Position numbers and translations under genes: made by a program
In this document: piece after piece, positions 1 to 14,161 of the stretch
Position numbering within the stretch: position 1 is the first letter of the stretch
Layout: every line of letters starts with the position of its first letter
Origin: a virus
Direction: 5' to 3' (one strand)
Virus record (IMG/VR): IMGVR_UViG_3300045391_005622
Location: 1-14,161 of that record
DNA length: 14,161 bases
Notes under the pieces: generated by a model
Told to the model about the DNA's origin: nothing
Seen by the model: only the letters and a program-made list of their open reading frames with translations
The model's database searches: none

Positions 1-54
1 TTACTATTGCACCATTGGCCAATTATTTGCACCTTTGAATTGTCAGTAAACAAA
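1..54. repeat. Terminal direct repeat, copy 1 (circular-closure overlap)
   Basis: ttactattgcaccattggccaattatttgcacctttgaattgtcagtaaacaaa is identical to 14108-14161. It contains the perfect palindrome ATTGGCCAAT (14-23), flanked by two TTGCACC copies (7-13 and 27-33). Confidence 0.9.
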
Positions 55-70
55 CCAAAAAATCTCAACC

Positions 71-325
71 ATGTTACACACTCCATCCAGTGCCATGCGC
101 ACTATCGCGGCCCAATGCGGCCAACTAATCAGAGAAAAAAAATATCACAAGGAACAGGCGCTGTATTACCACAAGATGTTCAATGCCAGCGTACCAAAAG
201 AGGATCTAAGCGCTGATATCATTATTTTGCATGAACTAACCCCGCTGCAGGAATTTTGGCAGCAGATGGCACAGCACCACATTACAGCCCTGCACCTGGT
301 AGAGAACCAAATAAACGCACTTTGA
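71..325 (+). CDS. Hypothetical small protein (84 aa), early module
   Basis: ATG-initiated ORF with helical-looking, balanced composition, followed by an intrinsic terminator at 354-375. Preferred over the overlapping 7..216 ORF, which has an odd His/Cys/Arg-rich composition and starts inside the terminal repeat. Confidence 0.55.
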   Translation: MLHTPSSAMRTIAAQCGQLIREKKYHKEQALYYHKMFNASVPKEDLSADIIILHELTPLQEFWQQMAQHHITALHLVENQINAL

Positions 326-353
326 TCACGCACGCAGCCGTTTCAACGGCACA

Positions 354-375
354 GGGGCTAATTTTAGCCCCTTTT
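354..375 (+). terminator. Rho-independent terminator after ORF 71-325
   Basis: ggggctaa/ttagcccc stem (354-371) followed by TTTT (372-375). Confidence 0.6.
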
Positions 376-449
376 CGCTTTTCTCCCAAAAGACGGGCAG
401 TTGCCCACATTACAAACCAGGCCCGTAAAAGGGCTGCAAATCGTTTACA

Positions 450-701
450 ATGGCTACAGACAAAGACCGGTTTTTATTGATATTGGTAGAGGATCTGCCA
501 TTGCCGGCAAACTCAATTGAGTGCAAAAAAGTCGGCACTGCATTAAATGGCCCTGAAGCTGAAATGATCGAAGTGCTGGCAGTGCTGATGGCACATAGTG
601 AAAAATTTCGCAGGCTGTTCAATGCAGCCGGCATAATGGCAAACAAAATACGGCGCGGTGAAATGCCCACACCTGGCCATTTTCAGGTAAACGATAATTA
701 A
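450..701 (+). CDS. Hypothetical protein (83 aa), early module
   Basis: ATG ORF with normal composition. No recognisable motif. Confidence 0.6.
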   Translation: MATDKDRFLLILVEDLPLPANSIECKKVGTALNGPEAEMIEVLAVLMAHSEKFRRLFNAAGIMANKIRRGEMPTPGHFQVNDN

Positions 702-725
702 CCAGTAACCCCAAAAACAAGCAAT

Positions 726-908
726 ATGACAGTAGCTATGCTAATTGAAAACCTGCAGGCGTTGCCCCGGCAGGATCTTCCAGTAATGGTTTTTGATGAA
801 CTGTTCAACACTTACCAGCATGTAGTGCTGGCAGAGATTGACACGCTACCAACCCCGCAGGGTGAAGTAACAGCGATCCGATTATTCACCAATGACAAAG
901 ACATTTAA
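726..908 (+). CDS. Hypothetical small protein (60 aa), paralog of 1129-1359
   Basis: N-terminus MTVAMLIENLQALPRQDLPVMV resembles MTVTEYIKALQALPGDLQVIIA of ORF 1129-1359. The next ORF starts 2 nt after its stop. Confidence 0.65.
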   Translation: MTVAMLIENLQALPRQDLPVMVFDELFNTYQHVVLAEIDTLPTPQGEVTAIRLFTNDKDI

Positions 909-909
909 C

Positions 910-1098
910 ATGGAAAAGGAAAAGATACCTGCAGCCCTGCAGGATGAAATTAACCGGGCTTTTGAAGTCGCAAAGCAATCGGTTTCCCTGCTCTACAGCC
1001 GGATGGATCTGGCAGATATTCCCAACGGGGGAATGGCCATGATCCTGAAAGACCTGGTATTGCAGCACCAGGAAGTGCAGCGGCACATGGCAGGGTGA
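910..1098 (+). CDS. Hypothetical small protein (62 aa)
   Basis: The track ORF begins at 892, inside the previous gene. The ATG at 910 directly follows the TAA at 906-908, so 910 is the likelier start. Helical composition. Confidence 0.6.
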   Translation: MEKEKIPAALQDEINRAFEVAKQSVSLLYSRMDLADIPNGGMAMILKDLVLQHQEVQRHMAG

Positions 1099-1128
1099 AT
1101 ATTTGCCCGGTTTTTCCGTTCTTGCCTT

Positions 1129-1359
1129 ATGACCGTGACAGAGTATATAAAGGCGCTGCAAGCCCTGCCAGGCGATCTGCAGGTGATAATAGCAGCCGGA
1201 ACGATTGACAGCTACACACAGTTTAAACCGGCTGGCCATCCACATACCATGTGCGTTGTGACCAGGACACAGGACGGGAAAACAATCCTGGAAAGCCAGT
1301 TAACAGGCCATCCCCTGCAGAAAGATTGCCCACAATTCGACGCGGTACGGCTGGCCTAA
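1129..1359 (+). CDS. Hypothetical small protein (76 aa), paralog of 726-908
   Basis: Shares the MTV..(I/Y)I..LQALP..DL.V motif with ORF 726-908. Followed by the bidirectional terminator. Confidence 0.7.
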   Translation: MTVTEYIKALQALPGDLQVIIAAGTIDSYTQFKPAGHPHTMCVVTRTQDGKTILESQLTGHPLQKDCPQFDAVRLA

Positions 1360-1385
1360 CCTGGTACTACCGCGAAGCGTGACAC

Positions 1386-1418
1386 AAAAAAAGCCGTGCA
1401 GATCCTGCACGGCTTTTT
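1386..1418. terminator. Bidirectional intrinsic terminator between convergent genes
   Basis: A7 run (1386-1392), stem gccgtgcag (1393-1401), loop atc, stem ctgcacggc (1405-1413), T5 (1414-1418). Lies between the + ORF ending at 1359 and the - ORF ending at 1435. Confidence 0.8.
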
Positions 1419-1434
1419 CATGTTAACCTATAGG

Positions 1435-1593
1435 TTAATTTTTCTTGCTAAAGATGCCTACCAGGGCTTGCAAAACGATGCCGGCAAAAGACAGCCATCT
1501 TTTTATTTTTGCCTCTTTCTTTACTTCGGTTTCGGTGCATTCGTTCACTGGTGCAGCTGGTACATTTTCGGGTAAAATTTGCTCGTTTGTCAT
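1435..1593 (-). CDS. Small tail-anchored membrane protein (52 aa); the only minus-strand gene
   Basis: The track ORF is 1435..1722 (-), but I use the internal ATG (complement of 1591-1593). Product MTNEQILPENVPAAPVNECTETEVKKEAKIKRWLSFAGIVLQALVGIFSKKN has a C-terminal hydrophobic helix followed by a basic tail. On the - strand a TAnnTTTG-type box (TACTTTTG, complement of 1623-1630) lies about 30 nt upstream. Confidence 0.45.
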   Translation of the reverse strand: MTNEQILPENVPAAPVNECTETEVKKEAKIKRWLSFAGIVLQALVGIFSKKN

Positions 1594-1816
1594 AGGGTAA
1601 TTTTTAACTGTTAGGAATGCATCAAAAGTAATTTGCAGCCCTGGCACCTGGTAGTTTATTCGATGGCTGGCGGGTTTTTGTCGCCTAGATATGCACATTC
1701 GTGGATATTCAAAAACGATCAATTTCAGAACGGGCTTTACATTCGGGCCATGATTTTACCGTTCAATCCATTTATTGTAAAGGAATTGCACCAGTGTACC
1801 TGGTTTAAAATATATA

Positions 1817-1846
1817 AGCCCTGCTATAGAAATAGCGGGGCTTTTT
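1817..1846 (+). terminator. Strong terminator-like hairpin in the rep-upstream intergenic region
   Basis: 11-bp stem agccctgctat / atagcggggct with one G-U pair, loop agaa, then T5 (1842-1846). No convincing + strand gene lies upstream of it. Confidence 0.5.
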
Positions 1847-1940
1847 ATGATTTTACCTTGGCACTTTTTACGATGCCATCCGGCACAAATGTACCTCTTT
1901 GCCCTCTCCCCTGGGTGCATTCACTCAAAATTAATTCGCA

Positions 1941-3041
1941 GTGCTAAAAGTGCTGCAGATACCACACAGCCCATATAAGCGCCGCAAGCCGGCCGCAATT
2001 CTCACCCCTGGTTCACAAAAATGGGTAGACAGGCAAGCCCCGCTGAAGGCCTCTAAATGGCGCTCAAAGGAAGAGTTTGCCAGGATGACCGGCCGCGCGG
2101 ATCTCCTTGATAAGTTAGCACAACTATCGCAACCCGCGCTGGGGGCCAGTTCCAGCAACGGATCGGAAAAGGAATTTCTGCGGAAAAGAGCCAAACGGAA
2201 ATATTTCACGCAGTACCTGGCAGGCCAGCTGGCCATGCTCGAAAGCCCGTTAAAAAAAGCCTATCGCAATTCACTGCATTGCTGCAGTGAATTAAAGCAG
2301 CACGAAGACAAGATAACCGCGAAGTATTGTAAAAACCGCTGGTGCATGGTATGCAATTCTATACGCACGGCTAAAAATATCAATGGGTATGAGCCGGAAT
2401 TTAAAAAGCTGTTAGATCCTCAATTCCTTACGCTGACCGTTCCCAACGTCAAAAAAGATGAACTACGGGAAACAATCCGGTGCATGAAAAAGACCTGGCA
2501 GGCCGTATATAAAAAGTTCCACCGGCAATGCCAGAAACTAAAAATTAAGCTGGTTGGGGTGCAAAAATTGGAATGCACCTATAATGCAGTAGAGGACACA
2601 TATCACCCTCATTTTCACTTCATTATAGATGGAAAGCCGATTGCATCGGCAATACATGATGAATGGTTGGCCCGGTTTCCATCGGCTAGGCGTGCAGCGC
2701 AAGATCTTCGCCCTGCGGATCTCAATTCAATGAAGGAAATGTTTAAATATTTTACCAAAGTTGTTACCACCAGTGGCAACACCAGGCGGATCTATATTCC
2801 TGCAATGGACGTAATTTTTCAAGCCATGCAGGGCTTTAGAGTTTTTCAACCGTTTGGCATAAAGGCGGTGAATGATGAACCGGACGACCTGGAAGCAATT
2901 ACCCTGGAAGAAAAAGTAGATCAGCTTGTCTGGTGGAAATGGACGGGTAACGATTGGCACGACACAGCAACCGGCAAACCATTAACCGGCTTTGAACGTG
3001 TAACGGTATATGATGAACTCTTTAAAAATGCAGCTTTGTAG
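1941..3041 (+). CDS. rep: Rolling-circle replication initiator, pC194/pUB110 (Rep_1) type HUH endonuclease
   Basis: All family motifs are visible: Cys cluster YCKNRWCMVCNSIR, motif I FLTLTVPN, HUH motif YHPHFHFII, and the catalytic E-x3-Y motif MKEMFKYFTK. The ORF opens at GTG 1941. ATG 2085 (MTGRADLL...) is an equally plausible or better start. Confidence 0.9.
   Translation: MLKVLQIPHSPYKRRKPAAILTPGSQKWVDRQAPLKASKWRSKEEFARMTGRADLLDKLAQLSQPALGASSSNGSEKEFLRKRAKRKYFTQYLAGQLAMLESPLKKAYRNSLHCCSELKQHEDKITAKYCKNRWCMVCNSIRTAKNINGYEPEFKKLLDPQFLTLTVPNVKKDELRETIRCMKKTWQAVYKKFHRQCQKLKIKLVGVQKLECTYNAVEDTYHPHFHFIIDGKPIASAIHDEWLARFPSARRAAQDLRPADLNSMKEMFKYFTKVVTTSGNTRRIYIPAMDVIFQAMQGFRVFQPFGIKAVNDEPDDLEAITLEEKVDQLVWWKWTGNDWHDTATGKPLTGFERVTVYDELFKNAAL
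2106..2112 (+). promoter_or_regulatory. Candidate double-strand-origin nick site (CTTGATA)
   Basis: This is the only CTTGATA I found in the window. It matches the CTTG/ATA nick core of pC194, pUB110 and phiX174 origins. It lies in the 5' part of rep, between short inverted repeats gcgcgg (2095-2100) and ccgcgc (2143-2148). A 7-mer alone is expected about once by chance. Confidence 0.3.
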
Positions 3042-3112
3042 CGCTAGCTGTCTCTAGTCGGTAATTTCTAACGGTAATAAACAACCTAAATTTTAAATTC
3101 AATTATAATTTT

Positions 3113-3364
3113 ATGGCAACACTAACAAATGAAGAGGTAAAAAATGTTTTAAACGATCACCACACTGGCCTGGTAATACTTATGCCTGGCAACCCAGATA
3201 ATTGCCCGGTCGGTGGAATGATTGTAGGTGCACAGGTTCAATTTCAATTTGGAATGAACGGCTGCTATAGGTGCATGATGTATGCGATACGCGGCATAAT
3301 GGAAAAAGAACCGGCATTGAAAAAATTAGTCATTGATGCACTGGCAACAAATTACAACCCATGA
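3113..3364 (+). CDS. Hypothetical protein (83 aa), low-GC trio member 1
   Basis: ATG ORF whose stop overlaps the next start (ATGA at 3361-3364). The region is AT-rich. Confidence 0.6.
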   Translation: MATLTNEEVKNVLNDHHTGLVILMPGNPDNCPVGGMIVGAQVQFQFGMNGCYRCMMYAIRGIMEKEPALKKLVIDALATNYNP

Positions 3365-3597
3365 AAAAGATAATCCCAAATAAAATTGTTTTTAGTCTGG
3401 TGCAACCTGATGAGCTAAACGTTGAAGTAAAAATAACAATGCACGGGCCGGAAATTGACATTGCATCAATGATTTTTTCAGCAATGCAAATTGATAAGAC
3501 TGTAAAATATTTGCTGATAAAAACTGTAGTTGGTTTTTGTGCACTTAATAAAATTTCAATGAGTAACCTAGAAAAAGAATTCAACAAAACTCAATAG
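3361..3597 (+). CDS. Hypothetical protein (78 aa), low-GC trio member 2
   Basis: Translationally coupled to the previous ORF by an ATGA overlap. The next ORF starts 3 nt after its stop. Confidence 0.6.
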   Translation: MKKIIPNKIVFSLVQPDELNVEVKITMHGPEIDIASMIFSAMQIDKTVKYLLIKTVVGFCALNKISMSNLEKEFNKTQ

Positions 3598-3599
3598 CT

Positions 3600-3833
3600 A
3601 TGTATACCGTAAAAATTATTGCCAACACAGTTTCAGAAAACCTGGAAAGACTGATCGGCTTTTACATTGATGAAGTGCAGGCATCAATACCTGGTGCAGT
3701 GATGACTTTTCAATACCAGGCATTGAACGGCATAAATGAAACAATCTATTCTTGCATGATAACTGTTTGCACGTCGATCATTGATATGCACTTTGCAGAA
3801 AAAAAGCCAGGGGCCAGTATTGCTGGATCGTAA
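3600..3833 (+). CDS. Hypothetical protein (77 aa), low-GC trio member 3
   Basis: Tightly packed ATG ORF, similar in size and in strand-turn-helix pattern to the two preceding ORFs. Confidence 0.6.
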   Translation: MYTVKIIANTVSENLERLIGFYIDEVQASIPGAVMTFQYQALNGINETIYSCMITVCTSIIDMHFAEKKPGASIAGS

Positions 3834-3840
3834 AACGTTC

Positions 3841-3848
3841 TATATTTG
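3841..3848 (+). promoter_or_regulatory. Bacteroidota-type -7 promoter box candidate (TATATTTG = TAnnTTTG)
   Basis: Exact match to the TAnnTTTG consensus, immediately downstream of the trio stop and upstream of the hairpin cluster. I saw no clear -33 TTTG. Confidence 0.3.
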
Positions 3849-3870
3849 CACCAGCCGGTAAGAAAAGGAC

Positions 3871-3896
3871 GCGTGCTCTGCAGGGATGCAACACGC
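3871..3896 (+). other. Hairpin 1 of the structured non-coding region
   Basis: gcgtg...cacgc outer stem with an inner tgca/tgca stem and ggga loop. Confidence 0.4.
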
Positions 3897-3926
3897 CAGC
3901 GATATTGCCGGGGCTGGGTGACCATT

Positions 3927-3950
3927 GTTACCAGGGTGTAACCTGGTAAC
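3927..3950 (+). other. Hairpin 2 of the structured non-coding region
   Basis: Perfect 9-bp stem gttaccagg / cctggtaac with 6-nt loop gtgtaa. Confidence 0.6.
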
Positions 3951-3968
3951 GTCTGTAAAAGAATAGAA

Positions 3969-3997
3969 CGGACTGCAATTGCAGCCCGTTTTTTTTT
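3969..3997 (+). terminator. Strong rho-independent terminator (+)
   Basis: Stem cgg-a-ctgcaattgcag-c-ccg followed by T9 (3989-3997). Confidence 0.8.
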
Positions 3998-4007
3998 GCC
4001 CCTAAAC

Positions 4008-4034
4008 GAAAAACCCCTGCAGATCCTGCAGGGG
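4008..4034 (-). terminator. Minus-strand-oriented intrinsic terminator hairpin
   Basis: Perfect stem cccctgcag / ctgcagggg (4014-4034) with loop atc. The A-run (4009-4013) is on the + strand upstream side, so it reads as a T-run only on the - strand. Shares the 13-nt core tgcagatcctgca with the 1393-1413 hairpin. Confidence 0.5.
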
Positions 4035-4229
4035 TAGCAAATGTTATCTGCATAGACCGGGCCAAATAGGCTGCTTTTGCCCAATTTTCAACCGCGTTGC
4101 CCGGCTTCGCATTGGCAACCTACATTTTTATTCTCCAAAAAACAAGCGTTTTGCCGTTGAACGGCATAAATTTTTTATTGTGCTATTGTAATAAAAATCT
4201 AAAGAAAGCGTTCATTCACCTGTTAGATC

Positions 4230-4238
4230 AATCCAATA
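4230..4238 (+). promoter_or_regulatory. AATCCAATA upstream motif, copy 1
   Basis: 9-mer 13 nt upstream of the TTG start at 4251. Followed by aaaccaatat, which also occurs upstream of 8746. Confidence 0.4.
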
Positions 4239-4250
4239 AACCAATATTTT

Positions 4251-4700
4251 TTGAAAACCGAGAAACTTCTCCTCTACGGCGCTGCCGGCATTGCAGTATT
4301 TGCGATCTTTTCAAAAGCCCGCGCGCTGGGTAACCTGGTATTTACACCAGGTACAGTTTCCGCAATGGGTTTTACAAATGGAGTTCCCACCGCTGATGTG
4401 ACATTGATCGCACAAAATACCAGTACCACTGGCCTTACCATTAACAGCTTTGCCGGCAACGTCTTTTCAAATAATATTCTAATCGGCAATATTTTCAGCT
4501 TCGCCCCGGTGCATATTTCCGGCAATTCCCAAACACCTATCAACGTATCAATACAGTTTAAACCCCTTGGCGTTGTAACTGACTTAATCAGCGCATGGAA
4601 TACAAATAATTTTTCACAGGATATCACAGTAGAGGGCTTTGCAAATGTGCTAGGGCTGCAGCTGCCAATTAATTTACGTTTTAAGTTTGGCACCCCTTAA
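4251..4700 (+). CDS. N-terminally membrane-anchored beta-rich structural protein (149 aa)
   Basis: TTG start. N-terminal helix KLLLYGAAGIAVFAIFSKAR is followed by an alternating beta-strand pattern (LVFTPGTVSAMGF..ADVTLIAQNTS..LTINSFAGNVF) that loosely resembles LEA_2/WHy-type beta-sandwiches. That fold assignment is tentative. Confidence 0.7.
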   Translation: MKTEKLLLYGAAGIAVFAIFSKARALGNLVFTPGTVSAMGFTNGVPTADVTLIAQNTSTTGLTINSFAGNVFSNNILIGNIFSFAPVHISGNSQTPINVSIQFKPLGVVTDLISAWNTNNFSQDITVEGFANVLGLQLPINLRFKFGTP

Positions 4701-4711
4701 ACCTGCAAGGC

Positions 4712-6454: not shown

Positions 6455-6463
6455 TTTTTATTC

Positions 6464-6472: not shown

Positions 6473-6475
6473 TCT

Positions 6476-7222
6476 ATGCAGGACGGCATTCAAACCGGCT
6501 TGATCTACAATGGTGCAGTTGTAAAAGATGCACCAGGTATCAGCCCAATAGATCTGATTTACGATGTTAATGCAAACAGCAGCGATATTGATCTATCGTC
6601 TCCCCTGGTTGTAACAAACCTAACACCCATTACCACGGGCGATCCTCTTGCCCCAACTGAAGCCCCGCCAATTGCGCCAAATGTGATGGCAATCCCTGCA
6701 CCAGCTGAAGACACTAAGAAAAGCCACAAAATACTTTTTGTTGGTGCTGGCCTGGGTGCACTGATGCTGTTATCAAAAGACAGTAAAAAAGCTGCAGGCC
6801 TTGGCAGTATTGGAAAGGGAAAAAAGAAAACGTCTTTACTGCCATTGCTATTGGTAGGCGGTGCAGCTGCACTTTATTATTTCTCAAAAAGCGAAAACGG
6901 TATAGATGATCCGGAAGCGGCCGGGCTGGTAGTTGTACCAGGGCTGGCAAAGCTAACTGAAGTAGAACGCGACGCAGTTTTTGCACGCACTGCAGGCTGG
7001 GTCAATCCGCATGGCGGTTATTACCCTGAAATCTACAGGGACGTGTTATTGCTAGGCCTGCCATTGTACGCTGATATATGGCGCAAGATGAGCCAGGAAG
7101 AGACAACACAAATTTACCAGCTGGTGATCGATCACCCTGCAGGATTGCTGCAGGCTGAAAACCCTCTTTTGTACAGCCAGGTACAGGCCATCAAAGAAAA
7201 ATACAATTTGAAATTTTATTAA
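6476..7222 (+). CDS. Two-pass membrane protein (248 aa)
   Basis: Pro/Ala-rich N-terminal region, helices ILFVGAGLGALMLL and SLLPLLLVGGAAALYYF separated by a basic loop, and a soluble C-terminal domain. Confidence 0.8.
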   Translation: MQDGIQTGLIYNGAVVKDAPGISPIDLIYDVNANSSDIDLSSPLVVTNLTPITTGDPLAPTEAPPIAPNVMAIPAPAEDTKKSHKILFVGAGLGALMLLSKDSKKAAGLGSIGKGKKKTSLLPLLLVGGAAALYYFSKSENGIDDPEAAGLVVVPGLAKLTEVERDAVFARTAGWVNPHGGYYPEIYRDVLLLGLPLYADIWRKMSQEETTQIYQLVIDHPAGLLQAENPLLYSQVQAIKEKYNLKFY

Positions 7223-7231: not shown

Positions 7232-7825
7232 ATGTCAAACGCACTGAAGGCGATCAACAAAAGGGTAAAAGCCCTGGCCAAAAAGCATCCAAAAAGCAAA
7301 CGTTCTACGCTGCAGAAACAAGCCGGCCGCGAATGGAAAGCCGGCAAGCTGAAAGCCAGGCGCAAAAAAGTTGCAGTGAAAAAAGTTGTACGCAAAAAAC
7401 GTGCAACGGCAAAACGCACGCCCCGCAAAGTTGGCAAGCCCACAACAGTTGTGTACAGCCTGGGTAAGTTGATAAAACGCAAGCGCAGGAAGGCTGCACC
7501 AAAAAAACGCAGCCATACAAGGCGCAAGGTATCCGGTAGCGGTAAGAGTTCATTAACACCATTGTTATTGGTTGGCGGCTTAGGCCTGGCAGCTTACATG
7601 CTGTTTAAAAGTAATGCTGCACCGCAACAACAATTGTATACTACCAACAACCCGCAAAGAGATGCAAGCGCAAACAATATTTTATTGTATGCAACAGCTG
7701 CAGGCATGACAGCAAAAGCAATTGCCGATCTCATCAATGCAATAAATAAAAGCAGTGATGCTGCAGTAATTAACGCGGCGCAAAATCCGCAAACTGCAAT
7801 CGATCAGCTGTTAAGTGGTGATTGA
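7232..7825 (+). CDS. Protamine-like, highly basic DNA-binding candidate fused to a TM anchor (197 aa)
   Basis: I count about 43 Lys/Arg and one acidic residue in the first ~107 residues. These are followed by SLTPLLLVGGLGLAAYMLF and a polar C-terminal tail. Confidence 0.8.
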   Translation: MSNALKAINKRVKALAKKHPKSKRSTLQKQAGREWKAGKLKARRKKVAVKKVVRKKRATAKRTPRKVGKPTTVVYSLGKLIKRKRRKAAPKKRSHTRRKVSGSGKSSLTPLLLVGGLGLAAYMLFKSNAAPQQQLYTTNNPQRDASANNILLYATAAGMTAKAIADLINAINKSSDAAVINAAQNPQTAIDQLLSGD

Positions 7826-7872
7826 TAAGTAAAAAACCAGGTAATAATTCTAAACCATATTACACAACTACA

Positions 7873-7986
7873 ATGGCAAAGACAGTAAAACCAAAAACAC
7901 CGGCAACCGATGCACCTGCAGGCTATGATCACGAAAGCGGCGCACCCAAACCAGTGAAAGACGTTCCTGCAGGTTATGAAGAGTAA
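7873..7986 (+). CDS. Possible mini-ORF (37 aa), not in the supplied track
   Basis: Translated by hand as MAKTVKPKTPATDAPAGYDHESGAPKPVKDVPAGYEE. It fills an otherwise empty 223-bp gap. It contains two PAGY repeats, each encoded across a CCTGCAGG octamer. Confidence 0.3.
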   Translation: MAKTVKPKTPATDAPAGYDHESGAPKPVKDVPAGYEE

Positions 7987-8048
7987 CCGCAAAAAAATCA
8001 GTTAACCCGCTAGCTGCGGACATTTTTAAAAATTCAATATTCAATCAA

Positions 8049-8672
8049 ATGGCTAAAAAGAAAAAGTCACACAAGCGCAGAAAAGTTTCTGGCCTGGGTG
8101 CAATGCTCAATCCAAAAAGCCCATTGGTAAAACTCGCAGCTATTGCCGGCGGTTACCTGATGGCAGACACGATCAACGACAATTTAAAAAAGCTGGTGCC
8201 AGATTCATTGACAAAGCCCACAGCGGCAACGGCAACAACCCCGGCAAAGCCTGCAACCTTATCAGCTGACACACTCGATCAGATTATGATCGCTGGTGAA
8301 GTTGGCCTGGGTGCATTGCTGATGCTGAAGGGCAAACCGTCCCTGGTGAAAGACATTGCCGGCGGCGTGCTTGCTGGTGCAGGTCTGAAACTGGCCCTGG
8401 TATCATTCGATATAATTAAACCTGCAGCGGTTACCGGTTACCAACGTGTACCAGTGATCGGCGGCTATCAAAAAGTACCTGTTATTGGCAACGTGCCAGC
8501 GCAGCTGCAGGGAACAGTAGCCAGCAAGCCAGCGCAGCTGCAGGGCTACCGTGTGAACGGTTACAATAACCAGGGCAGCGGCGCTGTAATGGGTTCATTG
8601 TTTACCACTGCAGACGCGGCCAATGGTACAGGGTCAGGCCTGGCACATGGTAATAGCGGTTATATGAACTAA
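8049..8672 (+). CDS. Membrane-associated structural protein (207 aa) with internal peptide repeats
   Basis: Basic N-terminus MAKKKKSHKRRKVSGLG resembles HTRRKVSGSG of ORF 7232. Has hydrophobic segments. Repeats are GYQRVPVIG/GYQKVPVIG and PAQLQG x2. Confidence 0.8.
   Translation: MAKKKKSHKRRKVSGLGAMLNPKSPLVKLAAIAGGYLMADTINDNLKKLVPDSLTKPTAATATTPAKPATLSADTLDQIMIAGEVGLGALLMLKGKPSLVKDIAGGVLAGAGLKLALVSFDIIKPAAVTGYQRVPVIGGYQKVPVIGNVPAQLQGTVASKPAQLQGYRVNGYNNQGSGAVMGSLFTTADAANGTGSGLAHGNSGYMN
8495..8545 (+). repeat. 18-bp exact direct repeat pair inside the CDS (gccagcgcagctgcaggg at 8495-8512 and 8528-8545)
   Basis: Read directly from the sequence. In-frame with a 33-nt period, and encodes the two PAQLQG copies. 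Confidence 0.85.
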
Positions 8673-8704
8673 CCAGGTCAACAGCCTCGGAATTGCTAAA
8701 GAAA

Positions 8705-8713
8705 AATCCAATA
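8705..8713 (+). promoter_or_regulatory. AATCCAATA upstream motif, copy 3 (extended form GCTAAAGAAAAATCCAATA...CAAAAG)
   Basis: Lies in the 73-nt leader of the capsid candidate. The extended motif is shared with copies at 10912-10940 and 13294-13325. Confidence 0.45.
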
Positions 8714-8745
8714 TCCAAAAGAGCAACCATAAAAACCAATATAAA

Positions 8746-9456
8746 ATGAACAACACAAACAATGTGTCAGCTCGTATGAGTTTTGACATTGCACGCAACG
8801 TACTGTACAAATCCTGGATCGGATCATTCGGCGGCGATTCTAAGGCCTGCTGGGACTGGGTAGACGGCCGCAAACTTTCACAAAGCGAAGTAAGGTGCGA
8901 AGTAAAGCTGAACACCACCAATACAAATTTCACCTTTGGTGTAATACAACAGCAGCCCAACAGCAGCGCTGTTACATTCCCAACTGAACGCAGGCTGGCC
9001 ATGCAGGATAGCTTGATCGTTGCAGAGTATGGAATATTTGTAGGCGTTGCTGCCAGTGACACTGACAGTAACTGGCTTGCGAAGACTTACGGCAACCCCA
9101 ATGTATTTACCACCGCTGGTTCATTTGCAGCCATTGACGGCGGTTTCTACTCGTCTGGTGGCTTCCAGATGACCGTGAACAATGATACAATCATTCCTTA
9201 CCGTGGCTTGCTTAACCATTACTACAGACCGCAAACGCAGCAGATTGCAGCAATTGCAGTTGGTGCAGTAGGTGACCAGCTGCGCGGCGCTGAAGATGGC
9301 ATGATCACACAGGAACCAAATCTTCTGCTGATCGGATCTAAAAATTATGTTCCGCAAATCGTGTTGCCAGCTGCACTTGCTGCAGTTACTCCCAACACAC
9401 GCGCGGTGCTGATTTTCCGTGGCGTTCTTGCACAAAACAGCACTGTTATCAATTAA
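8746..9456 (+). CDS. Major capsid protein candidate (236 aa, beta-rich, jelly-roll-like)
   Basis: No TM segments and an alternating beta-strand pattern. It has the longest leader carrying the conserved motif and is followed by a terminator hairpin. The function is inferred, not recognised by homology. Confidence 0.55.
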   Translation: MNNTNNVSARMSFDIARNVLYKSWIGSFGGDSKACWDWVDGRKLSQSEVRCEVKLNTTNTNFTFGVIQQQPNSSAVTFPTERRLAMQDSLIVAEYGIFVGVAASDTDSNWLAKTYGNPNVFTTAGSFAAIDGGFYSSGGFQMTVNNDTIIPYRGLLNHYYRPQTQQIAAIAVGAVGDQLRGAEDGMITQEPNLLLIGSKNYVPQIVLPAALAAVTPNTRAVLIFRGVLAQNSTVIN

Positions 9457-9489
9457 CAGTAGCGGGATCTGGATCTACATTCTTACATG

Positions 9490-9530
9490 AAAAACCCCGG
9501 CAACCGGTAACACAGCCGGCCCGGGGCTTT
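9490..9530 (+). terminator. Terminator or attenuator hairpin after the capsid candidate
   Basis: A5, then ccccgg (9495-9500) ... ccgggg (9521-9526) with an inner ccgg/ccgg stem, then cttt. Confidence 0.5.
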
Positions 9531-9547
9531 CACAAACTATTAAACCA

Positions 9548-10054
9548 ATGGACAGAATAATATTAGTCGCTGATGAGCCCCGCAATTGCTCTGAACTGGT
9601 AGAAGTGCCAGTGACAACCACAGGGCTTTTTCGGATCAACTTTCCCGATAATCAGCAGCTGCGCTCTATGCGTACACAAGATATCCGTATACAGGGTATA
9701 CGGTTAATCACACCAGACGTGGCCAGCTTTGGCCCGATCACTGGTTACCGCACCGCACCGGTTGCAGAGTTGAAAAAATGTTTCCTGGTGCTGTATTGCG
9801 AAGGATGGGAGAAAGCCCATTACATACCGCTGCAGGTGCTCAATGATACCAATATGCCATCCGGCACAGCTGCACACCGTTACAGTGCAACAAAATTTGG
9901 AAGTTGGCGCAATGTGGATTGGGGTAAGTCTTATATCCTTTACAGCAATGGCACCGGTGGCAGTGATGTTAGCGGCGGCAATTATGAATTTCTTTTTGAT
10001 GTAGAGTACACAAAATTAGACGCTGAAGGCAAGGAGATAATAGGGCCATCTTAA
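9548..10054 (+). CDS. Second beta-rich capsid protein candidate (168 aa; single jelly-roll size, minor capsid or penton)
   Basis: About eight predicted beta segments (LFRINFP, IRIQGIRLI, CFLVLYCEG, HYIPLQVL, SYILY, YEFLFDVEY). No TM segments. Confidence 0.5.
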   Translation: MDRIILVADEPRNCSELVEVPVTTTGLFRINFPDNQQLRSMRTQDIRIQGIRLITPDVASFGPITGYRTAPVAELKKCFLVLYCEGWEKAHYIPLQVLNDTNMPSGTAAHRYSATKFGSWRNVDWGKSYILYSNGTGGSDVSGGNYEFLFDVEYTKLDAEGKEIIGPS

Positions 10055-10105
10055 CCGGCGGCCCCTCTCAAAAAACGCGATATCTAATTTTTTAAAGCAA
10101 TAGTT

Positions 10106-10891
10106 ATGGCTGGGCAATCTGTACAATTTTTTGGTAGAGCGGCCGTGTTAAACGCATACCGGGCCAGGGGCATTGATACCTGGGGGCTTTTTGATAAAAA
10201 GCAATTTATTAACGCTGGCCAGGATGAAAACGATCTATCTGCATTCCTGGAAATGTTAGAACCTGGTGGATCGCAAAGCGTTTACACGTTGAAGGTATAC
10301 CGCGATGTAGATGACATTGATTTATTAACCGATCGCACTGAATGCAATGGATCTTTCAATTTCAAATTGTTTCAGGCAATGGCCCCGGCTTCACTTGCAC
10401 CGGCAACGGTTGGCAATCCTTCACCTGGTGCCAGGTATGCTGATCCGATTTACCAAAAGATACACGGCATAATAGATCAGGAAGTAAGCGCAGCCATTGA
10501 AAAGCGGTTAAGCGGCAAAAGCCAGGATGAAGAGGAAGAGAAAGAACAATCCTGGAATGAAGTTATAATGGGTTATGTCAACAGCCCGGAAAAACTCAAC
10601 GCAGTATTGCCGGTGATACAGTCAACATTGCAGACACTAGGCGCAATTTTTCGCCCTGGTGGCGTTGCACCTGCAGCGGTTGGCATACCAGTAAGCCTGG
10701 CAGGTACGCAGCCAGTGCAAAGGGTAGGGGCTGTACAGCAACCTACCAATGATGAGAAGTTAGCCAGGCTGGCAGCTGCACTGGATAAATGGGAAAGCCT
10801 AGATCCTGATGCACTGACAGTAATTGAAAAAATTGTTGCACTTGCGGAAAACGATCCTGGCAAGTACAAGATGGCAAAGAGTTTTTTATAA
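10106..10891 (+). CDS. Hypothetical protein (261 aa), possible scaffold or assembly factor
   Basis: Globular N-terminal domain, Ala/Pro linkers with the repeated motif APATVGNP / APAAVGIP, an acidic patch SQDEEEEKEQ and a helical C-terminus. No TM segments. Confidence 0.7.
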   Translation: MAGQSVQFFGRAAVLNAYRARGIDTWGLFDKKQFINAGQDENDLSAFLEMLEPGGSQSVYTLKVYRDVDDIDLLTDRTECNGSFNFKLFQAMAPASLAPATVGNPSPGARYADPIYQKIHGIIDQEVSAAIEKRLSGKSQDEEEEKEQSWNEVIMGYVNSPEKLNAVLPVIQSTLQTLGAIFRPGGVAPAAVGIPVSLAGTQPVQRVGAVQQPTNDEKLARLAAALDKWESLDPDALTVIEKIVALAENDPGKYKMAKSFL

Positions 10892-10919
10892 ATGTGTCAC
10901 TCGCCTACATGGCTAAAAA

Positions 10920-10928
10920 AATCCAATA
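10920..10928 (+). promoter_or_regulatory. AATCCAATA upstream motif, copy 4 (GCTAAAAAAATCCAATA...CAAAAG)
   Basis: Ends 18 nt upstream of ATG 10947. Confidence 0.45.
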
Positions 10929-10946
10929 CCCGCAAAAGCCGTTGTT

Positions 10947-11771
10947 ATGATTAAAAAATTAATTGCAGTTGATGAAAAGGGCGAACCGGTAAAAAATGCC
11001 GTGTTCACTTTTACGCAAGTGCAAGCAGATGGCAGCACGGGTATTGTTGCAGTAGCTGATGGCGGGCAAAGTGGCGTGGTATCATTCGACACACAAACCG
11101 ATCCCAATTTATTTTCAAGCGATAACCATATAACAGTAGAGGCGCCAGGTTTTTTAAAAAGTGGCGTGGATGCTGATGTTATTGGTGATGCCTGGCAATT
11201 TACAATGGCCAAAAGTGCTTCAATGGTGCCAGCGTTAACGCTGGGTGCATTGGTGGCAGTGGGTGCCGTTGCCATCTACAGGAAAGGCAATAAAAGTAAA
11301 GTAGGTGCATTTAATGCAAAAGATGATTTATTGCCCTGGGTTGTTCCTGCAGCCGTTGTAGTTGGCGGTTATGCATTATATAAAAAATTCTTTGGCAAAA
11401 GCGAAGAGGACAAAGCACGCGATCAGGCGCTAAGTGATGACATTGCAAATGCACAGCAGGAAGAGCCGGCAAGAATGTTAGACAGTGAGATCGCAGCTAC
11501 TGCAAATGCACTGGTAGAAGATCTGACCTATTCACACCCCTTTGGAGACAGCGATCAGCAATTGGACGCGGCACACCAGCTGACAAAGCCAGGCACACTG
11601 GTAGACCTGTTACGATTAATAAAGCAATACGGAAAACACTATATAACATACTTCGGCATTCCTGCAGGCAGTTTCACATTAGAAGAGACAGTAACCCGCA
11701 AATTAGATCGGGAAATCATTGACGAAATAAACCGCTATTACAGAGCGCAAGGCATCAACTTTCAATTTTAA
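10947..11771 (+). CDS. Two-pass membrane protein (274 aa) with an N-terminal Ig/CarboxypepD_reg-like beta domain
   Basis: N-terminus IAVDEKGEPVKNAVFTF...ITVEAPGF resembles carboxypeptidase-regulatory-like beta-sandwiches (tentative). Helices are ALTLGALVAVGAVAIY and LLPWVVPAAVVVGGYALYKKFF. Has a helical C-terminal domain. Confidence 0.8.
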   Translation: MIKKLIAVDEKGEPVKNAVFTFTQVQADGSTGIVAVADGGQSGVVSFDTQTDPNLFSSDNHITVEAPGFLKSGVDADVIGDAWQFTMAKSASMVPALTLGALVAVGAVAIYRKGNKSKVGAFNAKDDLLPWVVPAAVVVGGYALYKKFFGKSEEDKARDQALSDDIANAQQEEPARMLDSEIAATANALVEDLTYSHPFGDSDQQLDAAHQLTKPGTLVDLLRLIKQYGKHYITYFGIPAGSFTLEETVTRKLDREIIDEINRYYRAQGINFQF

Positions 11772-11775
11772 TTCT

Positions 11776-12156
11776 ATGAACCATTGTGATAATAACGGCT
11801 TACAAGTAAAGTACCTGCAAGGCCGTGGCCAGGTGCAAGTGCCTGCAGAGTCAATGCAGGTGGCCAGGGTTTACAATATGTCCGTGCAGACCTATACAAC
11901 AAGCGCGAATGTATTGGTAGAAAGTAATTGTTTTTCATTCATGTTTACCAACCTGGGAGACACAATAGCCAGGGTAAACGGTATGATCATTTATCCACCG
12001 GCAACACCTGGTGCACAGCTGGGAGACAGCCGATCAATCAGTGCACACGTATTGGATCTGTTTAAAGGAAATATAACTATTGCTTTTGATCCGGGCGGTA
12101 CTGCGCCCCTCGTTGAAGTTGTGCAGCTGTATTACGCTGAACAATACCACCATTAA
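11776..12156 (+). CDS. Small beta-rich structural protein (126 aa), possible vertex or adaptor protein
   Basis: Beta-strand-dominated sequence with no TM segments, located immediately upstream of the spike-like gene. Confidence 0.6.
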   Translation: MNHCDNNGLQVKYLQGRGQVQVPAESMQVARVYNMSVQTYTTSANVLVESNCFSFMFTNLGDTIARVNGMIIYPPATPGAQLGDSRSISAHVLDLFKGNITIAFDPGGTAPLVEVVQLYYAEQYHH

Positions 12157-12171
12157 TAAAAAAATTAATTT

Positions 12172-13269
12172 ATGGGTTTATCTACTGGCTTTGGTGTATC
12201 TCAAAAATCAGAGGCTGGCGGCGGTATGCCGGCGCCCCCCTTCGATCCAACAAGTGCCCACAATGGCACAAGCATTGACGCGGCCGGAAAAGTTGTATTA
12301 GGAAATGATGGCGGTTTATATCCTGGCCCTGGTGCTTTTGAAAATACCAGGGAAATTGATATGAACAGCCATGATTTTTTGATCGGCCGTTCAAATAAAA
12401 CTGCTGCTGGAAATGTAATCATCACAGCAGTTACAACAGAAATTACCGGCCCGGTGCAAGAAGATAGCGCCTATGATTTTTTCCTGGTTGATCAGGAATT
12501 TAACATAGGCGGCAGTCCTGTTTTAATGCGGTTGGCAGTTACAAAAAGTTTTGCCAGCAACAATGCATGCTTTATGAAAATGAATGAAGCGGTTGCAGGG
12601 ATCGACATTCACACATTTAAATTAAACGGTGATTTTGCTTTCGGTAATAATGGCGCCGGCGGTATTATACAATCAGACAGTGGGATACTTTGGATACGGC
12701 CGGATGGTATTACCAGGTACGGACTTTTCAACGGCGGAGATGCAGAAATAAAGCTGGGTGACCTGGAAGGGACTTTCAGCAGTGCAAGGTTAAATATCTT
12801 TTTGGCAACCGGCCGGATGACTTTCACTGATGGCTTTGGTAACGAGTATTTGTCCGCAAGTTCACAGGGCGGCGCTTTGGGTAACGTTACAGATGCAACA
12901 CAGCCAAAATTAGTGGTAAACGGTAGCAGCAACGCGATCAGCGGGTATGTAGGAGACTCTGAAACTTTTAGAGTTGATAACGGTGCAGGCGCTGGCCTTG
13001 AAGCGTTCCTGGGTGATGTGAACAGCGTTGCAAATAGTACACTGCTTATTATTGATGACCGTACAGGCAACCAGCGGGTAACAATCACTGCAGCAAATGG
13101 CCTGGTAGTAAATGCAACCAACGGATATTTTGCACAGACCGGCGGCACGTTAACCAATGGCGCTGCAGCTGCAGCCGGCACGTTGAACAATGCACCCGTA
13201 GCTGGCAACCCCACAAAGTGGATCAAAATACGGGATGCAGGGGTAGACCGTTTTATACCCGCGTGGTAA
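12172..13269 (+). CDS. Spike or receptor-binding protein candidate (365 aa)
   Basis: Gly/Asn/Ala-rich beta-type sequence with a flexible Gly-rich N-terminus. The C-terminal motif GNPTKWIKIRDAGVDRFIPAW is of a kind I recall at the ends of phage fibre or spike proteins. It is the last structural gene before the lysis genes. Confidence 0.6.
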   Translation: MGLSTGFGVSQKSEAGGGMPAPPFDPTSAHNGTSIDAAGKVVLGNDGGLYPGPGAFENTREIDMNSHDFLIGRSNKTAAGNVIITAVTTEITGPVQEDSAYDFFLVDQEFNIGGSPVLMRLAVTKSFASNNACFMKMNEAVAGIDIHTFKLNGDFAFGNNGAGGIIQSDSGILWIRPDGITRYGLFNGGDAEIKLGDLEGTFSSARLNIFLATGRMTFTDGFGNEYLSASSQGGALGNVTDATQPKLVVNGSSNAISGYVGDSETFRVDNGAGAGLEAFLGDVNSVANSTLLIIDDRTGNQRVTITAANGLVVNATNGYFAQTGGTLTNGAAAAAGTLNNAPVAGNPTKWIKIRDAGVDRFIPAW

Positions 13270-13292
13270 AATAAATGCGTCATTCAGCCGTA

Positions 13293-13308
13293 TTGCTAAA
13301 AAAATCCA
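13293..13308 (+). promoter_or_regulatory. Degenerate copy of the upstream motif (TTGCTAAAAAAATCCA, then tttaacgacctCAAAAG)
   Basis: Shares GCTAAAAAAATCCA and the downstream CAAAAG with the copies at 8695 and 10912. Lies 27 nt upstream of ATG 13335. Confidence 0.35.
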
Positions 13309-13334
13309 TTTAACGACCTCAAAAGAAAGTAACC

Positions 13335-13487
13335 ATGCAAACAGAACAGGCATTAAAAATTATTCAACAGCTGCAGGACGTTGCAATACAAAAAGGATTA
13401 TTTGCAAACGTTCAAACAGTTAACCAGGTATCAACAGCAATTGCAACGCTGCAGGCTGCATTATTAGAACGCAATGAAGGCAAGTGA
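13335..13487 (+). CDS. Small helical protein (50 aa), not in the supplied track; overlaps the endolysin start
   Basis: Translated by hand as MQTEQALKIIQQLQDVAIQKGLFANVQTVNQVSTAIATLQAALLERNEGK. Its stop at 13485-13487 overlaps the lysozyme ATG (13474) by 14 nt. No TM segment, so it is not a holin. Confidence 0.5.
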   Translation: MQTEQALKIIQQLQDVAIQKGLFANVQTVNQVSTAIATLQAALLERNEGK

Positions 13488-13992
13488 TAAATATTTAATT
13501 GCTGCAGGTGCATTGGTTGTGCTGATGCTGTTACCTGGTACATTAAACCGTGGAGATATGACAGCAGCAAATTTAATTGCATCGTTTGAGGGCTTTGCAA
13601 GCCATCCGTATTGGGACGTAAATAGATGGTCCTGGGGTTACGGCACCAGGGCGCCAGGGAATTACGGTTATGCGCTGGCCTTTCCTGATCCTGCAGTAAC
13701 GATCACCAGGGCAGAGGCGCTGCAGGAATTGCAAGCGCATGCAGATAGTGATTACAACTACCTGGCACCGATGATCACGCGGCCGCTAAGCGCTGGCCAG
13801 TGGGCGGCGCTGTTATCGTTCTCATACAATACCGGCCAGGGCAATGCAGACAACCTGGTGCCAAATATCAATGCCGGCAATGATCTGGCCCTGGAAAGCC
13901 AATGGAAAAAATATGTATATGCCGGTGGCCAGGTTAATGCCACCCTGCAGAAACGCAGGGAAAAAGAGTGGCAGATCTGGCAAGCCGGTTAA
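13474..13992 (+). CDS. Endolysin, GH24 (T4/lambda-type) lysozyme with an N-terminal signal-anchor (SAR-like)
   Basis: The catalytic region SFEGFASHPYWDVNRWSWGYGT fits the GH24 pattern E-x8-D-x(n)-(S/T)..GYG. It is preceded by the hydrophobic segment YLIAAGALVVLMLL. Confidence 0.85.
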   Translation: MKASDKYLIAAGALVVLMLLPGTLNRGDMTAANLIASFEGFASHPYWDVNRWSWGYGTRAPGNYGYALAFPDPAVTITRAEALQELQAHADSDYNYLAPMITRPLSAGQWAALLSFSYNTGQGNADNLVPNINAGNDLALESQWKKYVYAGGQVNATLQKRREKEWQIWQAG

Positions 13993-14083
13993 CTTCGTTT
14001 CATGGATTAAGGGTGCTATTGTGATCGGTAGGTTTGAGATCCTGCCGGTTTACTGCAAATAAGCAATAGTGCTGAACTTTCAC

Positions 14084-14109
14084 GCCCTGGGTTTTTACTC
14101 GGGGCTTTT
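14084..14109 (+). terminator. Weak terminator after the lysis genes
   Basis: gccctg (14084-14089) pairs with cggggc (14100-14105) with one G-U pair, then TTTT. The cggggctttt tail resembles the 1817-1846 hairpin. Confidence 0.35.
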
Positions 14110-14161
14110 ACTATTGCACCATTGGCCAATTATTTGCACCTTTGAATTGTCAGTAAACAAA
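14108..14161. repeat. Terminal direct repeat, copy 2
   Basis: Identical to 1-54. Confidence 0.9.

Follow-up and report, generated by a model that had tools for sequence, protein, structure and literature searches.

A circular 14.1-kb virus genome with two predicted single jelly-roll capsid proteins, from a large family that we could not find described

What kind of virus carries a plasmid-type replication initiator, a lysozyme and a series of small membrane proteins on a circle of 14.1 kb in which no packaging ATPase can be recognized? The question is raised by the IMG/VR virus record IMGVR_UViG_3300045391_005622, whose positions 1 to 14,161 (the whole of this stretch is called the window here) were analyzed together with related metagenome loci, designated L001, L003 and so on where they need to be told apart. 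A preliminary description, made from the letters of the window, had seen in it an undescribed lineage of Rep-dependent, membrane-containing phages resembling FLiP and PM2, possibly with single-stranded DNA (ssDNA). The reading that we favor, and regard as rather likely, is that the window is the complete, circularly permuted genome of an uncultivated phage without a tail, whose particle is probably icosahedral and whose host is most likely a member of the Bacteroidota living in soil or the rhizosphere; the phage belongs to a large family that we could not find described and may assemble its virions on membrane vesicles without an ATPase.

The window is a complete circular virus genome, as had been proposed before. 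Its positions 1-54 and 14108-14161 are 100% identical (repeat family D5), the same 54-bp identity that was noted earlier; this gives a circular unit of 14,107 bp. Both copies stand at the outermost ends of the contig with nothing flanking them, which is the pattern of an assembler overlap on a circular template. Relative L003, which is also circular (127-nt terminal repeat), provides independent support for the junction, since a homologue (14888-15151) of the window's open reading frame (ORF) 71-325 comes after its endolysin gene (14193-14699) without a break in the DNA, and this is the order found across the window junction. L045 likewise is circular by a terminal repeat (107 nt). The window holds 23 non-overlapping ORFs on the plus strand and one conserved ORF on the minus strand, with a coding density of 88%; the strand bias reported before is upheld, and the earlier count of 22 ORFs is not. 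These genes fall into three modules: small early genes, the Rep_1 initiator together with an intergenic region rich in hairpins, and a long block for structure and lysis. Leaders are A/T-rich and no start codon has a GGAG-type Shine-Dalgarno site, in agreement with the preliminary description.

Database families recognize very little of this content. Pfam and PHROG scans covered 20 window ORFs, ten of which were also scanned against NCBIfam; they matched Rep_1 and Phage_lysozyme and otherwise gave sub-threshold hints, with no NCBIfam match. Terminase, portal, tail protein, integrase and polymerase found no Pfam or PHROG match in the 20 ORFs, nor did a packaging ATPase, and no real ORF of the window contains a Walker A motif, all of which bears out what had been claimed from the sequence by eye. 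Genes for conjugation, mobilization or partition were also absent from the Pfam and PHROG results, and scans of the window for tRNA and Rfam families returned no tRNA and no above-threshold match.

The identity of the virion is instead suggested by two adjacent genes, 8746-9456 and 9548-10054, which had been singled out earlier as beta-rich and of capsid size. AlphaFold2 models were built with family alignments and searched with Foldseek against PDB and BFVD, the route proposed in the preliminary description. The 236-aa protein was modeled as two N-terminal helices followed by an 8-strand sandwich (pLDDT 83.7, pTM 0.82), and the 168-aa protein as an 8-strand sandwich (pLDDT 86.9, pTM 0.81). 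PDB matches of both models were weak, with a best E of ~4e-3 and TM-scores of 0.33-0.48. Nearly all entries in the list for the 236-aa model (E of at least 4e-3) are nevertheless viral jelly-roll capsid proteins, including those of SPMV, PBCV-1, EhV, SGIV, SPV1, PCV2 and bromoviruses and VP17 of P23-77. The top PDB match of the 168-aa model was the SPV1 capsid chain 6oj0_A (Foldseek probability 0.97, E 4.8e-3, TM-score 0.37), and the 236-aa model matched SPV1 chains 6oj0_Z and 6oj0_A with a probability of 0.84. The matches to P23-77 VP17 and, for the 168-aa model, to an HHIV-2 capsid chain were weak (3zmn, probability ~0.2; 6h82_E, probability 0.23), and BFVD gave only generic weak jelly-roll matches for the 236-aa model. 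Profile searches with either protein against all PDB sequences matched no chain, and hhalign detected no relation between the two families. The 236-aa protein is the most conserved of the family and lacks a basic DNA-binding arm; the 168-aa gene adjoins it in all 25 longer relatives examined. From these models we conclude that both are single jelly-roll capsid-type proteins without a close known relative, and that the 168-aa protein may be either a second major capsid protein or a penton.

These capsid genes define a large group. The 236-aa protein has 607 homologous clusters at 90% identity, none of them named, and an exhaustive profile search with its family found 407 clusters at 50% identity, all 150 of those listed being shorter than 300 aa; the 168-aa protein has 123 homologous clusters. 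The longest contigs with the capsid genes nearly always measure 13-17 kb. Soil, rhizosphere and groundwater samples are the source of sixty metagenome loci, and the GC content of the family is 36-49%. Gene order is kept in relatives down to ~50% capsid identity with the window. It runs from the anchored 149-aa protein through the transglutaminase-like protein, membrane proteins, the basic transmembrane (TM) protein and the basic membrane protein to the 236-aa and 168-aa proteins, and continues with the 261-aa protein, a variable membrane protein, the 126-aa protein, a variable spike and the endolysin. About nine co-conserved genes form a syntenic block of ~9 kb. The structural block is kept in hundreds of metagenomic genomes of 13-17 kb, in which the replication and lysis genes are exchanged.

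A genome megablast and a capsid tblastn against 50,697 GenBank phage records (INPHARED) returned no match, the capsid protein was not matched in PLSDB plasmids, and we found no description of the family in the open-access literature. We could not find the family described or classified in the databases and literature searched, which agrees with the earlier view of an undescribed lineage. Nor did any of the findings that the preliminary description had named as contrary to its reading appear, namely repeat copies flanked by host DNA, capsid candidates with HK97, terminase or portal homology or without a jelly-roll, and close nucleotide identity to a classified phage. Tailless membrane-containing phages are heavily under-sampled, and each bacterial family of them known to us goes back to the isolation of one virus. 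Here, structural proteins that have no match in PDB, Pfam, PHROGs or the GenBank phage records belong to a family that is diverse, widespread and apparently complete at 14-17 kb.

The replication protein, on which the preliminary description had based its name for the lineage, behaves quite differently from the capsid module. The window's Rep is, as stated earlier, a pC194-type HUH endonuclease (PF01446, E 1.2e-14, 54.8 bits against a cut-off of 33.2), with the motifs FLTLT (aa 162), HPHFHF (aa 222) and YFTK (aa 270). Its best full-length plasmid matches are small Bacteroides and Phocaeicola plasmids (27% identity, 80% coverage, E 6e-20), and its nearest phage matches, at ~30% identity, are Reps of filamentous phages with ssDNA, namely metagenomic Inovirus sp. 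and Clostridium phage CAK1. Rep_1 is carried by the window, L001/L009 and L003. In other relatives with the same structural genes, the replication slot (window 1941-3041; L016:1786-2796, L004:3035-4072, L045:140-1165, L052:11939-12973, L037:10346-11377) is occupied by one of two other proteins. A Rep of the REP_ORF2-G2P type is found in L016, L004, L008, L023, L029, L013 and L155, and a P-loop protein of ~345 aa is found in the same early-gene region of L045, L032, L037, L049, L052, L066 and L154. The latter has a Walker A motif GxPKxGK[ST], matches Pfam AAA_25 (E 1e-6 to 1e-7) and, weakly, PHROGs for DnaB-like helicase and primase-helicase, and carries one JGI annotation as 'KaiC/GvpD/RAD55 family RecA-like ATPase'; its 169 homologous clusters lie almost all on contigs of 13-18 kb. 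Scanning the RecA-like ATPase of L052 against IMG/VR gave no match, its family profile had no significant match among all PDB sequences, and tblastn of the G2P-type Rep against the phage records was equally negative. In the loci examined, no two of these three unrelated proteins share a genome and the capsid module is constant, and in L045, which is complete and circular and has the RecA-like ATPase, an HUH Rep was not detected. Judged from these gene contents, Rep is a swappable module that does not define the family, because a G2P-type Rep or the RecA-like ATPase takes its place in relatives whose structural genes are the same, and the label 'Rep-dependent' has to be dropped as a trait of the lineage. 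Such free exchange on one capsid module makes the replication protein a poor taxonomic marker.

DNA methyltransferases (N4/N6, Dam-type and C5) are also present in several relatives, one or two per genome (for example L004:1471-2067, L045:14857-16403, L049:1400-2230 and L052:10599-11342); the window has none.

An internal membrane in the virion is suggested by the predicted membrane proteins. A hydropathy scan placed anchors in ORFs 4251, 6476, 7232, 8049 and 10947 (ORFs are named here by their first coordinate) and in the endolysin, and inspection by eye added the C-terminus of ORF 4712 and the minus-strand ORF. The hydrophobic anchors described before are confirmed, although in seven to eight ORFs instead of six, and about seven proteins predicted by hydropathy and eye accord with the claim of many membrane proteins. 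The product of ORF 7232 combines 47 K/R with 6 D/E residues, reaching a net charge of +19 within 40 aa, and is a candidate membrane-tethered DNA-condensing protein. Homologues of ORF 8049-8672, whose product also has a basic N-terminus, are present in every locus that covers the position. The motif RRKVSG(S/L)G stands right before a hydrophobic segment in both ORFs 7232-7825 and 8049-8672. Profile comparison gave a relatedness probability of only 40% for ORFs 7232 and 8049 and of 55% for ORFs 7232 and 10947.

Several other members of the structural block can be given candidate roles. The N-terminal domain of ORF 4712, aligned with its relatives, matches Transglut_core in 9 of 12 members (best E 5e-6) and has an invariant Cys-His-Asp set (C101, H141 and D156), so that its product may be a virion-associated enzyme for entry or maturation. 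ORF 4251-4700, conserved in distant relatives, has a weak LEA_2 match (E 5e-4) under the Pfam cut-off. The family of the 261-aa protein (10106-10891) has no Pfam match and no PDB match by profile, and may provide a scaffold or capsid-membrane linker. The 126-aa protein (11776-12156), whose family profile has no significant match among all PDB sequences, is a candidate vertex or penton-base protein. In the adjacent spike candidate (12172-13269), which has no Pfam or PHROG match, most relatives match ~50-90 N-terminal residues and a few match over the full length at ~30% identity. The endolysin is a GH24 lysozyme, as recognized before (PF00959, E 1.8e-19; phrog_7, E 1.4e-23), and the lysin type is exchanged among relatives between GH24, GH108 with PG_binding_3, and glucosaminidase (the alternatives at L037:9607-10275, L045:14219-14719 and L154:7999-8502). 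Most relatives also have an ORF of ~150 aa just upstream of the lysin, which the window lacks.

If the favored reading is correct, the infection cycle might proceed as follows. Rep would nick an origin in the structured region 3855-4140, and rolling-circle replication would lead to double-stranded circles. The basic domains of the membrane-anchored products of ORFs 7232 and 8049 would condense this DNA inside a vesicle of host membrane, in which the other small membrane proteins would be embedded. On this vesicle the 236-aa jelly-roll protein and the 168-aa protein, as a second capsomer subunit or penton, would assemble a shell without ATP-driven packaging, as has been proposed for SPV1 (PMC8459092, PMC8812541). 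The 126-aa protein and the variable 365-aa protein would form the vertex and a receptor-binding spike, the transglutaminase-like protein would act at entry or maturation, and the anchored endolysin would lyse the cell and release the progeny.

The host is most likely a member of the Bacteroidota from soil or rhizosphere, on indirect evidence comprising the missing Shine-Dalgarno sites, the plasmid matches of Rep, the GC content of the family and the flank of one relative, L071. Absence of Shine-Dalgarno sites is typical of Bacteroidota. In L071 (Logan SRR31724234, a 21.8-kb contig, region 1-19659) the structural module at 5712-14491 is joined on its left to NACHT-associated, TIR and fragmented type I HsdR genes, with the early genes on the opposite strand; the HsdR fragment is 85-91% identical to genomes of the Bacteroidota Pedobacter, Chitinophagales, Terrimonas and Cloacibacterium. 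No integrase was recognized in L071, which is probably an integrated relative within a Bacteroidota defense island and hints that some family members integrate. The Bacteroidota host named in the preliminary description is plausible on these grounds.

Whether the virion contains ssDNA or double-stranded DNA (dsDNA) separates the favored reading from its nearest competitor, a FLiP-like membrane-containing phage in which single-stranded circles made by Rep pass directly into the capsid, which would account for the lack of an ATPase. The HUH endonuclease itself, its nearest phage homologues in filamentous ssDNA phages, the location of all but one gene on one strand, the hairpin-rich intergenic region and the lack of an ATPase are all consistent with this alternative, as are the putative FLiP-group genomes of up to 17 kb from Bacteroidetes (Yutin et al. 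2018, PMC5894146). The composition of third codon positions, compared between the window with 11 relatives and three reference phages, points the other way. Third-position T (T3) is 0.45 in FLiP and 0.47 in phiX174, both ssDNA phages, with third-position AT (AT3) skews of -0.31 and -0.58, whereas PM2, a dsDNA phage with rolling-circle replication, has a T3 of 0.32 and a skew of -0.02; the window has 0.26 and +0.045, and the relatives range over 0.22-0.32 and -0.20 to +0.11. Moreover, the family has no conserved protein of double jelly-roll size, and BLAST, HMM and profile comparison revealed no similarity to FLiP proteins. In L045 the capsid module is accompanied by a RecA-like ATPase while an HUH Rep was not detected, which does not sit easily with the production of ssDNA circles, and methyltransferases in relatives argue in the same direction. 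We therefore consider an ssDNA phage of this kind unlikely. Because of the swapping of replication proteins, the methyltransferases of relatives and the absence of a strong third-position T excess, the genes suggest that the virion probably holds dsDNA, and the ssDNA genome suggested earlier is disfavored.

Two further explanations dispense with the membrane or with the virion altogether. The hydrophobic proteins could serve lysis, entry or superinfection exclusion in a small non-enveloped icosahedral virus, a scaled-up microvirus- or CRESS-like form with a horizontal single jelly-roll capsid. The Foldseek matches of the 236-aa model do include the horizontal jelly-rolls of SPMV, PCV2, BMV/CCMV, PLRV and CMV, and no lipid-related enzyme is encoded; but genes for several membrane proteins lie among the capsid genes and are conserved along with them, the strongly basic domains belong to TM-anchored proteins while the capsid protein has no basic arm, and 14-17 kb is far above the known T=1 jelly-roll phages, all of which make this a distinctly improbable account. 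That the window is a plasmid, satellite or other non-autonomous mobile element merely carrying jelly-roll-like and lysozyme genes would fit its plasmid-type Rep, the weak fold matches and the fact that the family is known here from genes. We find it very hard to credit, however, given that the ~9-kb block with its two capsid-like folds is kept across the 407 clusters at 50% identity despite swaps of the replication gene, that genome size is narrowly held at 14-17 kb, that the endolysin closes the late block and is swapped among lysin families as in phages, and that conjugation, mobilization and partition genes are absent from the scans.

Several observations nonetheless weigh against a dsDNA phage with an internal membrane and a Bacteroidota host. 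Icosahedral shape, membrane and DNA type are read from the genes. The weak fold matches of the models would fit a vertical jelly-roll of the SPV1/Helvetiavirae type or a horizontal one alike, and either assignment of the 168-aa protein to capsid or penton. A rolling-circle Rep, coding on one strand, a hairpin-rich intergenic region and the lack of an ATPase are equally the hallmark of ssDNA phages. The relatives' RecA-like ATPase, unmatched to solved structures, might possibly have a packaging role. The pC194 nick-site core TCTTGATA occurs in the window at chance level, and no pC194-type nick site was found there. As for the host, the capsid gene of the family was found in none of 185,579 species-representative genomes (GTDB scan), for which reason the host link is indirect and rests partly on L071, itself a single short-read contig that is possibly chimeric; the Bacteroidetes -7 promoter motif TAnnTTTG, found 13 times against 15.9 expected, is not enriched in the window.

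Table 1. Features of the window, in order of position
Feature	Coordinates	Strand	Basis or remark
Terminal redundancy, copy 1	1..54	.	Intergenic, marks the circular junction; = 14108-14161
Five small early ORFs	71-325, 450-701, 726-908, 892-1098, 1129-1359	+	Without Pfam or PHROG family
Perfect GC-rich hairpin with A-run and T-run on its flanks	1386..1420	.	Repeat family D3
Sole minus-strand gene, 52-aa protein with C-terminal hydrophobic anchor	1435..1594	-	Kept in L003
Rolling-circle initiator, HUH endonuclease, Rep_1 (pC194) family	1941..3041	+	PF01446
Three small ORFs after Rep	3113-3364, 3361-3597, 3600-3833	+	No family match; conserved in L001 and L003
Hairpin-rich non-coding region between replication and structural modules	3855..4140	+	DNA folding
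Core virion-module protein, 149 aa, predicted N-terminal anchor and beta-rich ectodomain	4251..4700	+	TM aa 6-23
Transglutaminase-like protein, 580 aa	4712..6454	+	N-terminal domain of ~170 aa, variable middle, C-terminal anchor
Membrane protein, two predicted TM segments	6476..7222	+	Hydropathy; conserved in part of the family
Protein with basic N-terminal ~100 aa, then one predicted TM helix (aa 108-125)	7232..7825	+	Hydropathy; conserved across the family
Core membrane protein, basic N-terminus (MAKKKKSHKRRK...), hydrophobic segments	8049..8672	+	Hydropathy
Predicted major capsid protein, 236 aa, N-terminal helices and single jelly-roll	8746..9456	+	AlphaFold2
Predicted second single jelly-roll capsid protein, 168 aa	9548..10054	+	AlphaFold2, Foldseek
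Core protein, 261 aa	10106..10891	+	Conserved N-domain of ~95 aa, variable acidic/Pro-Ala linker, conserved C-terminal helix
Membrane protein, two predicted TM segments, variable member of structural module	10947..11771	+	Conserved in part of the family
Small beta-rich core protein, 126 aa, directly upstream of spike gene	11776..12156	+	Kept in distant relatives
Gly-rich spike or receptor-binding candidate, 365 aa	12172..13269	+	N-terminus conserved, rest variable
50-aa ORF overlapping the endolysin start	13335..13487	+	Without TM segment
GH24 endolysin, N-terminal signal-anchor-like segment	13474..13992	+	PF00959; TM aa 7-24
Terminator-like hairpin and T-run after the long run of rightward genes	14084..14105	+	Sequence
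Terminal redundancy, copy 2	14108..14161	.	100% identical to 1-54

The remaining features of Table 1 are conserved over shorter distances. The five early ORFs are found only in the closest relatives, L001 and L003. Two of them (726-908 and 1129-1359) share the initial motif MTV..I..LQALP..L.V and appear to be paralogues, and two ORFs of L003 match ORF 1129-1359. The hairpin at 1386-1420, located between converging genes, is a terminator-like element that would act in both directions. Hairpins at 1388-1418 and 4009-4035 have a common core, CTGCAGATCCTGCAG (repeat family D3), and bound the replication module. The minus-strand gene has a homologue in L003 at 1395-1559 on the minus strand (MTNE...KWL...LQxLxGIFSxKN; local alignment score 89), and its product could be an exclusion or regulatory protein. 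Folded as DNA, the region 3855-4140 reaches -55.8 kcal/mol (z = -4.4 against shuffles), with four strong hairpins in 286 nt and a conserved inverted repeat, GTTGCC-N12-GGCAAC, at ~4097-4120; its blocks GCTCTGCAGGGATGCAAC and GTTGCCCGGCTNCGCATTGGCAAC are exact in the close clade of L001, L003, L009 and L010 and in no other locus fetched. This region is a candidate Rep_1 replication origin or regulatory region. The sigma-70 consensus is not enriched in the window.

How does this family compare with known groups of viruses and plasmids? Microviridae have ssDNA genomes of 4-7 kb, an F-type capsid protein and a phiX-type Rep, in contrast to the 14.1 kb and Rep_1 of the window, and no microvirus family was matched by PHROG or Pfam in its ORFs. 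Plasmids of the pC194/pUB110 family share a Rep_1 with the three HUH-family motifs, the cryptic plasmids of Bacteroides and Phocaeicola being the best full-length matches, but they share Rep alone; the other 90% of the window, made up of genes for virion and lysis, has no counterpart in PLSDB plasmids. Kinship with Finnlakeviridae or Corticoviridae, as presumed earlier, is not supported: a double jelly-roll capsid protein defines those families, the window has two predicted single jelly-rolls of 236 and 168 aa in its place, the 150 listed representatives of its capsid family are all under 300 aa, and comparison of sequences and profiles showed no resemblance to proteins of FLiP or PM2. Tblastn, hhalign of each capsid family, family HMMs against FLiP ORFs and phmmer gave no link to FLiP, through which alone the FLiP group of Yutin et al. 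2018 was compared, and phmmer gave none between PM2 proteins and family ORFs. The FLiP group, which is defined by homologues of the FLiP capsid protein and has an M13-like Rep (PMC5894146), resembles the window in its Bacteroidota hosts, circular genome, genes on one strand, rolling-circle Rep, lytic enzyme, many small membrane proteins and lack of a packaging ATPase, and the window's relatives even include G2P/M13-like Reps. FLiP and PhiCjT23 differ, however, in their double jelly-roll capsid protein of ~311 aa and ssDNA of 7.6-9.2 kb, and the codon composition of the family lacks the ssDNA T bias of FLiP. PM2 is, as the window probably is, a circular dsDNA phage with a rolling-circle Rep, an internal membrane, many small membrane proteins and a third-position composition similar to that of the family, and its relatives exchange replication modules (PMC5894146), but both its double jelly-roll protein P2 and its FtsK-like packaging ATPase P9 are missing in the window.

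Helvetiavirae (realm Singelaviria), represented by SNJ1 (Simuloviridae), P23-77 and IN93 (Matsushitaviridae), and SH1 and HHIV-2 (Sphaerolipoviridae), have an internal membrane and, like the window, two adjacent genes for a larger and a smaller single jelly-roll capsid protein. Capsid sizes of 236 and 168 aa resemble those of SH1. Simuloviridae genomes are circular dsDNA of 16-19 kb (PMC12642351). In contrast to the window, Helvetiavirae have an FtsK/HerA-type packaging ATPase beside the capsid genes, and none was seen in the window or in the structural modules of the relatives examined, where the RecA-like ATPase sits in the replication slot. They also differ in that the window has the large gene before the small one, in the lack of sequence similarity and in their hosts, which are Thermus or haloarchaea.

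SPV1 (Portogloboviridae) has small single jelly-roll capsid proteins, one forming hexamers and one pentamers, an internal membrane with many membrane and sub-capsomer proteins, DNA condensed by a basic protein and no packaging ATPase (PMC8459092, PMC8812541). The window resembles it in having a circular genome of similar order (20 kb in SPV1), many predicted membrane proteins and no packaging ATPase, and its basic TM-anchored proteins would fit a condensed nucleoprotein core. In the fold searches, SPV1 capsid chains came first for the 168-aa protein and ranked with the best matches of the 236-aa protein. SPV1 nevertheless infects hyperthermophilic archaea (Sulfolobales), is non-lytic and has neither Rep nor lysin, whereas the window has bacterial lysis genes and translation signals of the Bacteroidota type; sequence similarity is lacking and the fold match is weak (TM-scores 0.37-0.43). 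Membership in Portogloboviridae or Helvetiavirae fails because host, packaging ATPase or detectable homology does not fit.

To our knowledge, the ATPase-free single-jelly-roll state, which has been proposed to be ancestral, is so far represented by one hyperthermophilic archaeal virus only. We put forward tentatively, as a possibility that we ourselves hold in some doubt, that the family is a bacterial counterpart of SPV1 and Helvetiavirae, with icosahedral, membrane-containing dsDNA virions, separate vertical single jelly-rolls and no packaging ATPase. If that were true, such viruses would be abundant and diverse in ordinary soils, infecting Bacteroidota. If an architecture of two single jelly-rolls without an ATPase were confirmed, the family would be a bacterial analogue of SPV1, would matter for the debate on how Helvetiavirae and Bamfordvirae arose (PMC8812541), would allow encapsidation of a genome of ~15 kb without an ATPase to be studied in a tractable system and would bring a phage group without tails into the ecology of soil Bacteroidota. 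By analogy of architecture, then, SPV1 and the two-jelly-roll Helvetiavirae appear to be the closest known counterparts of the window.

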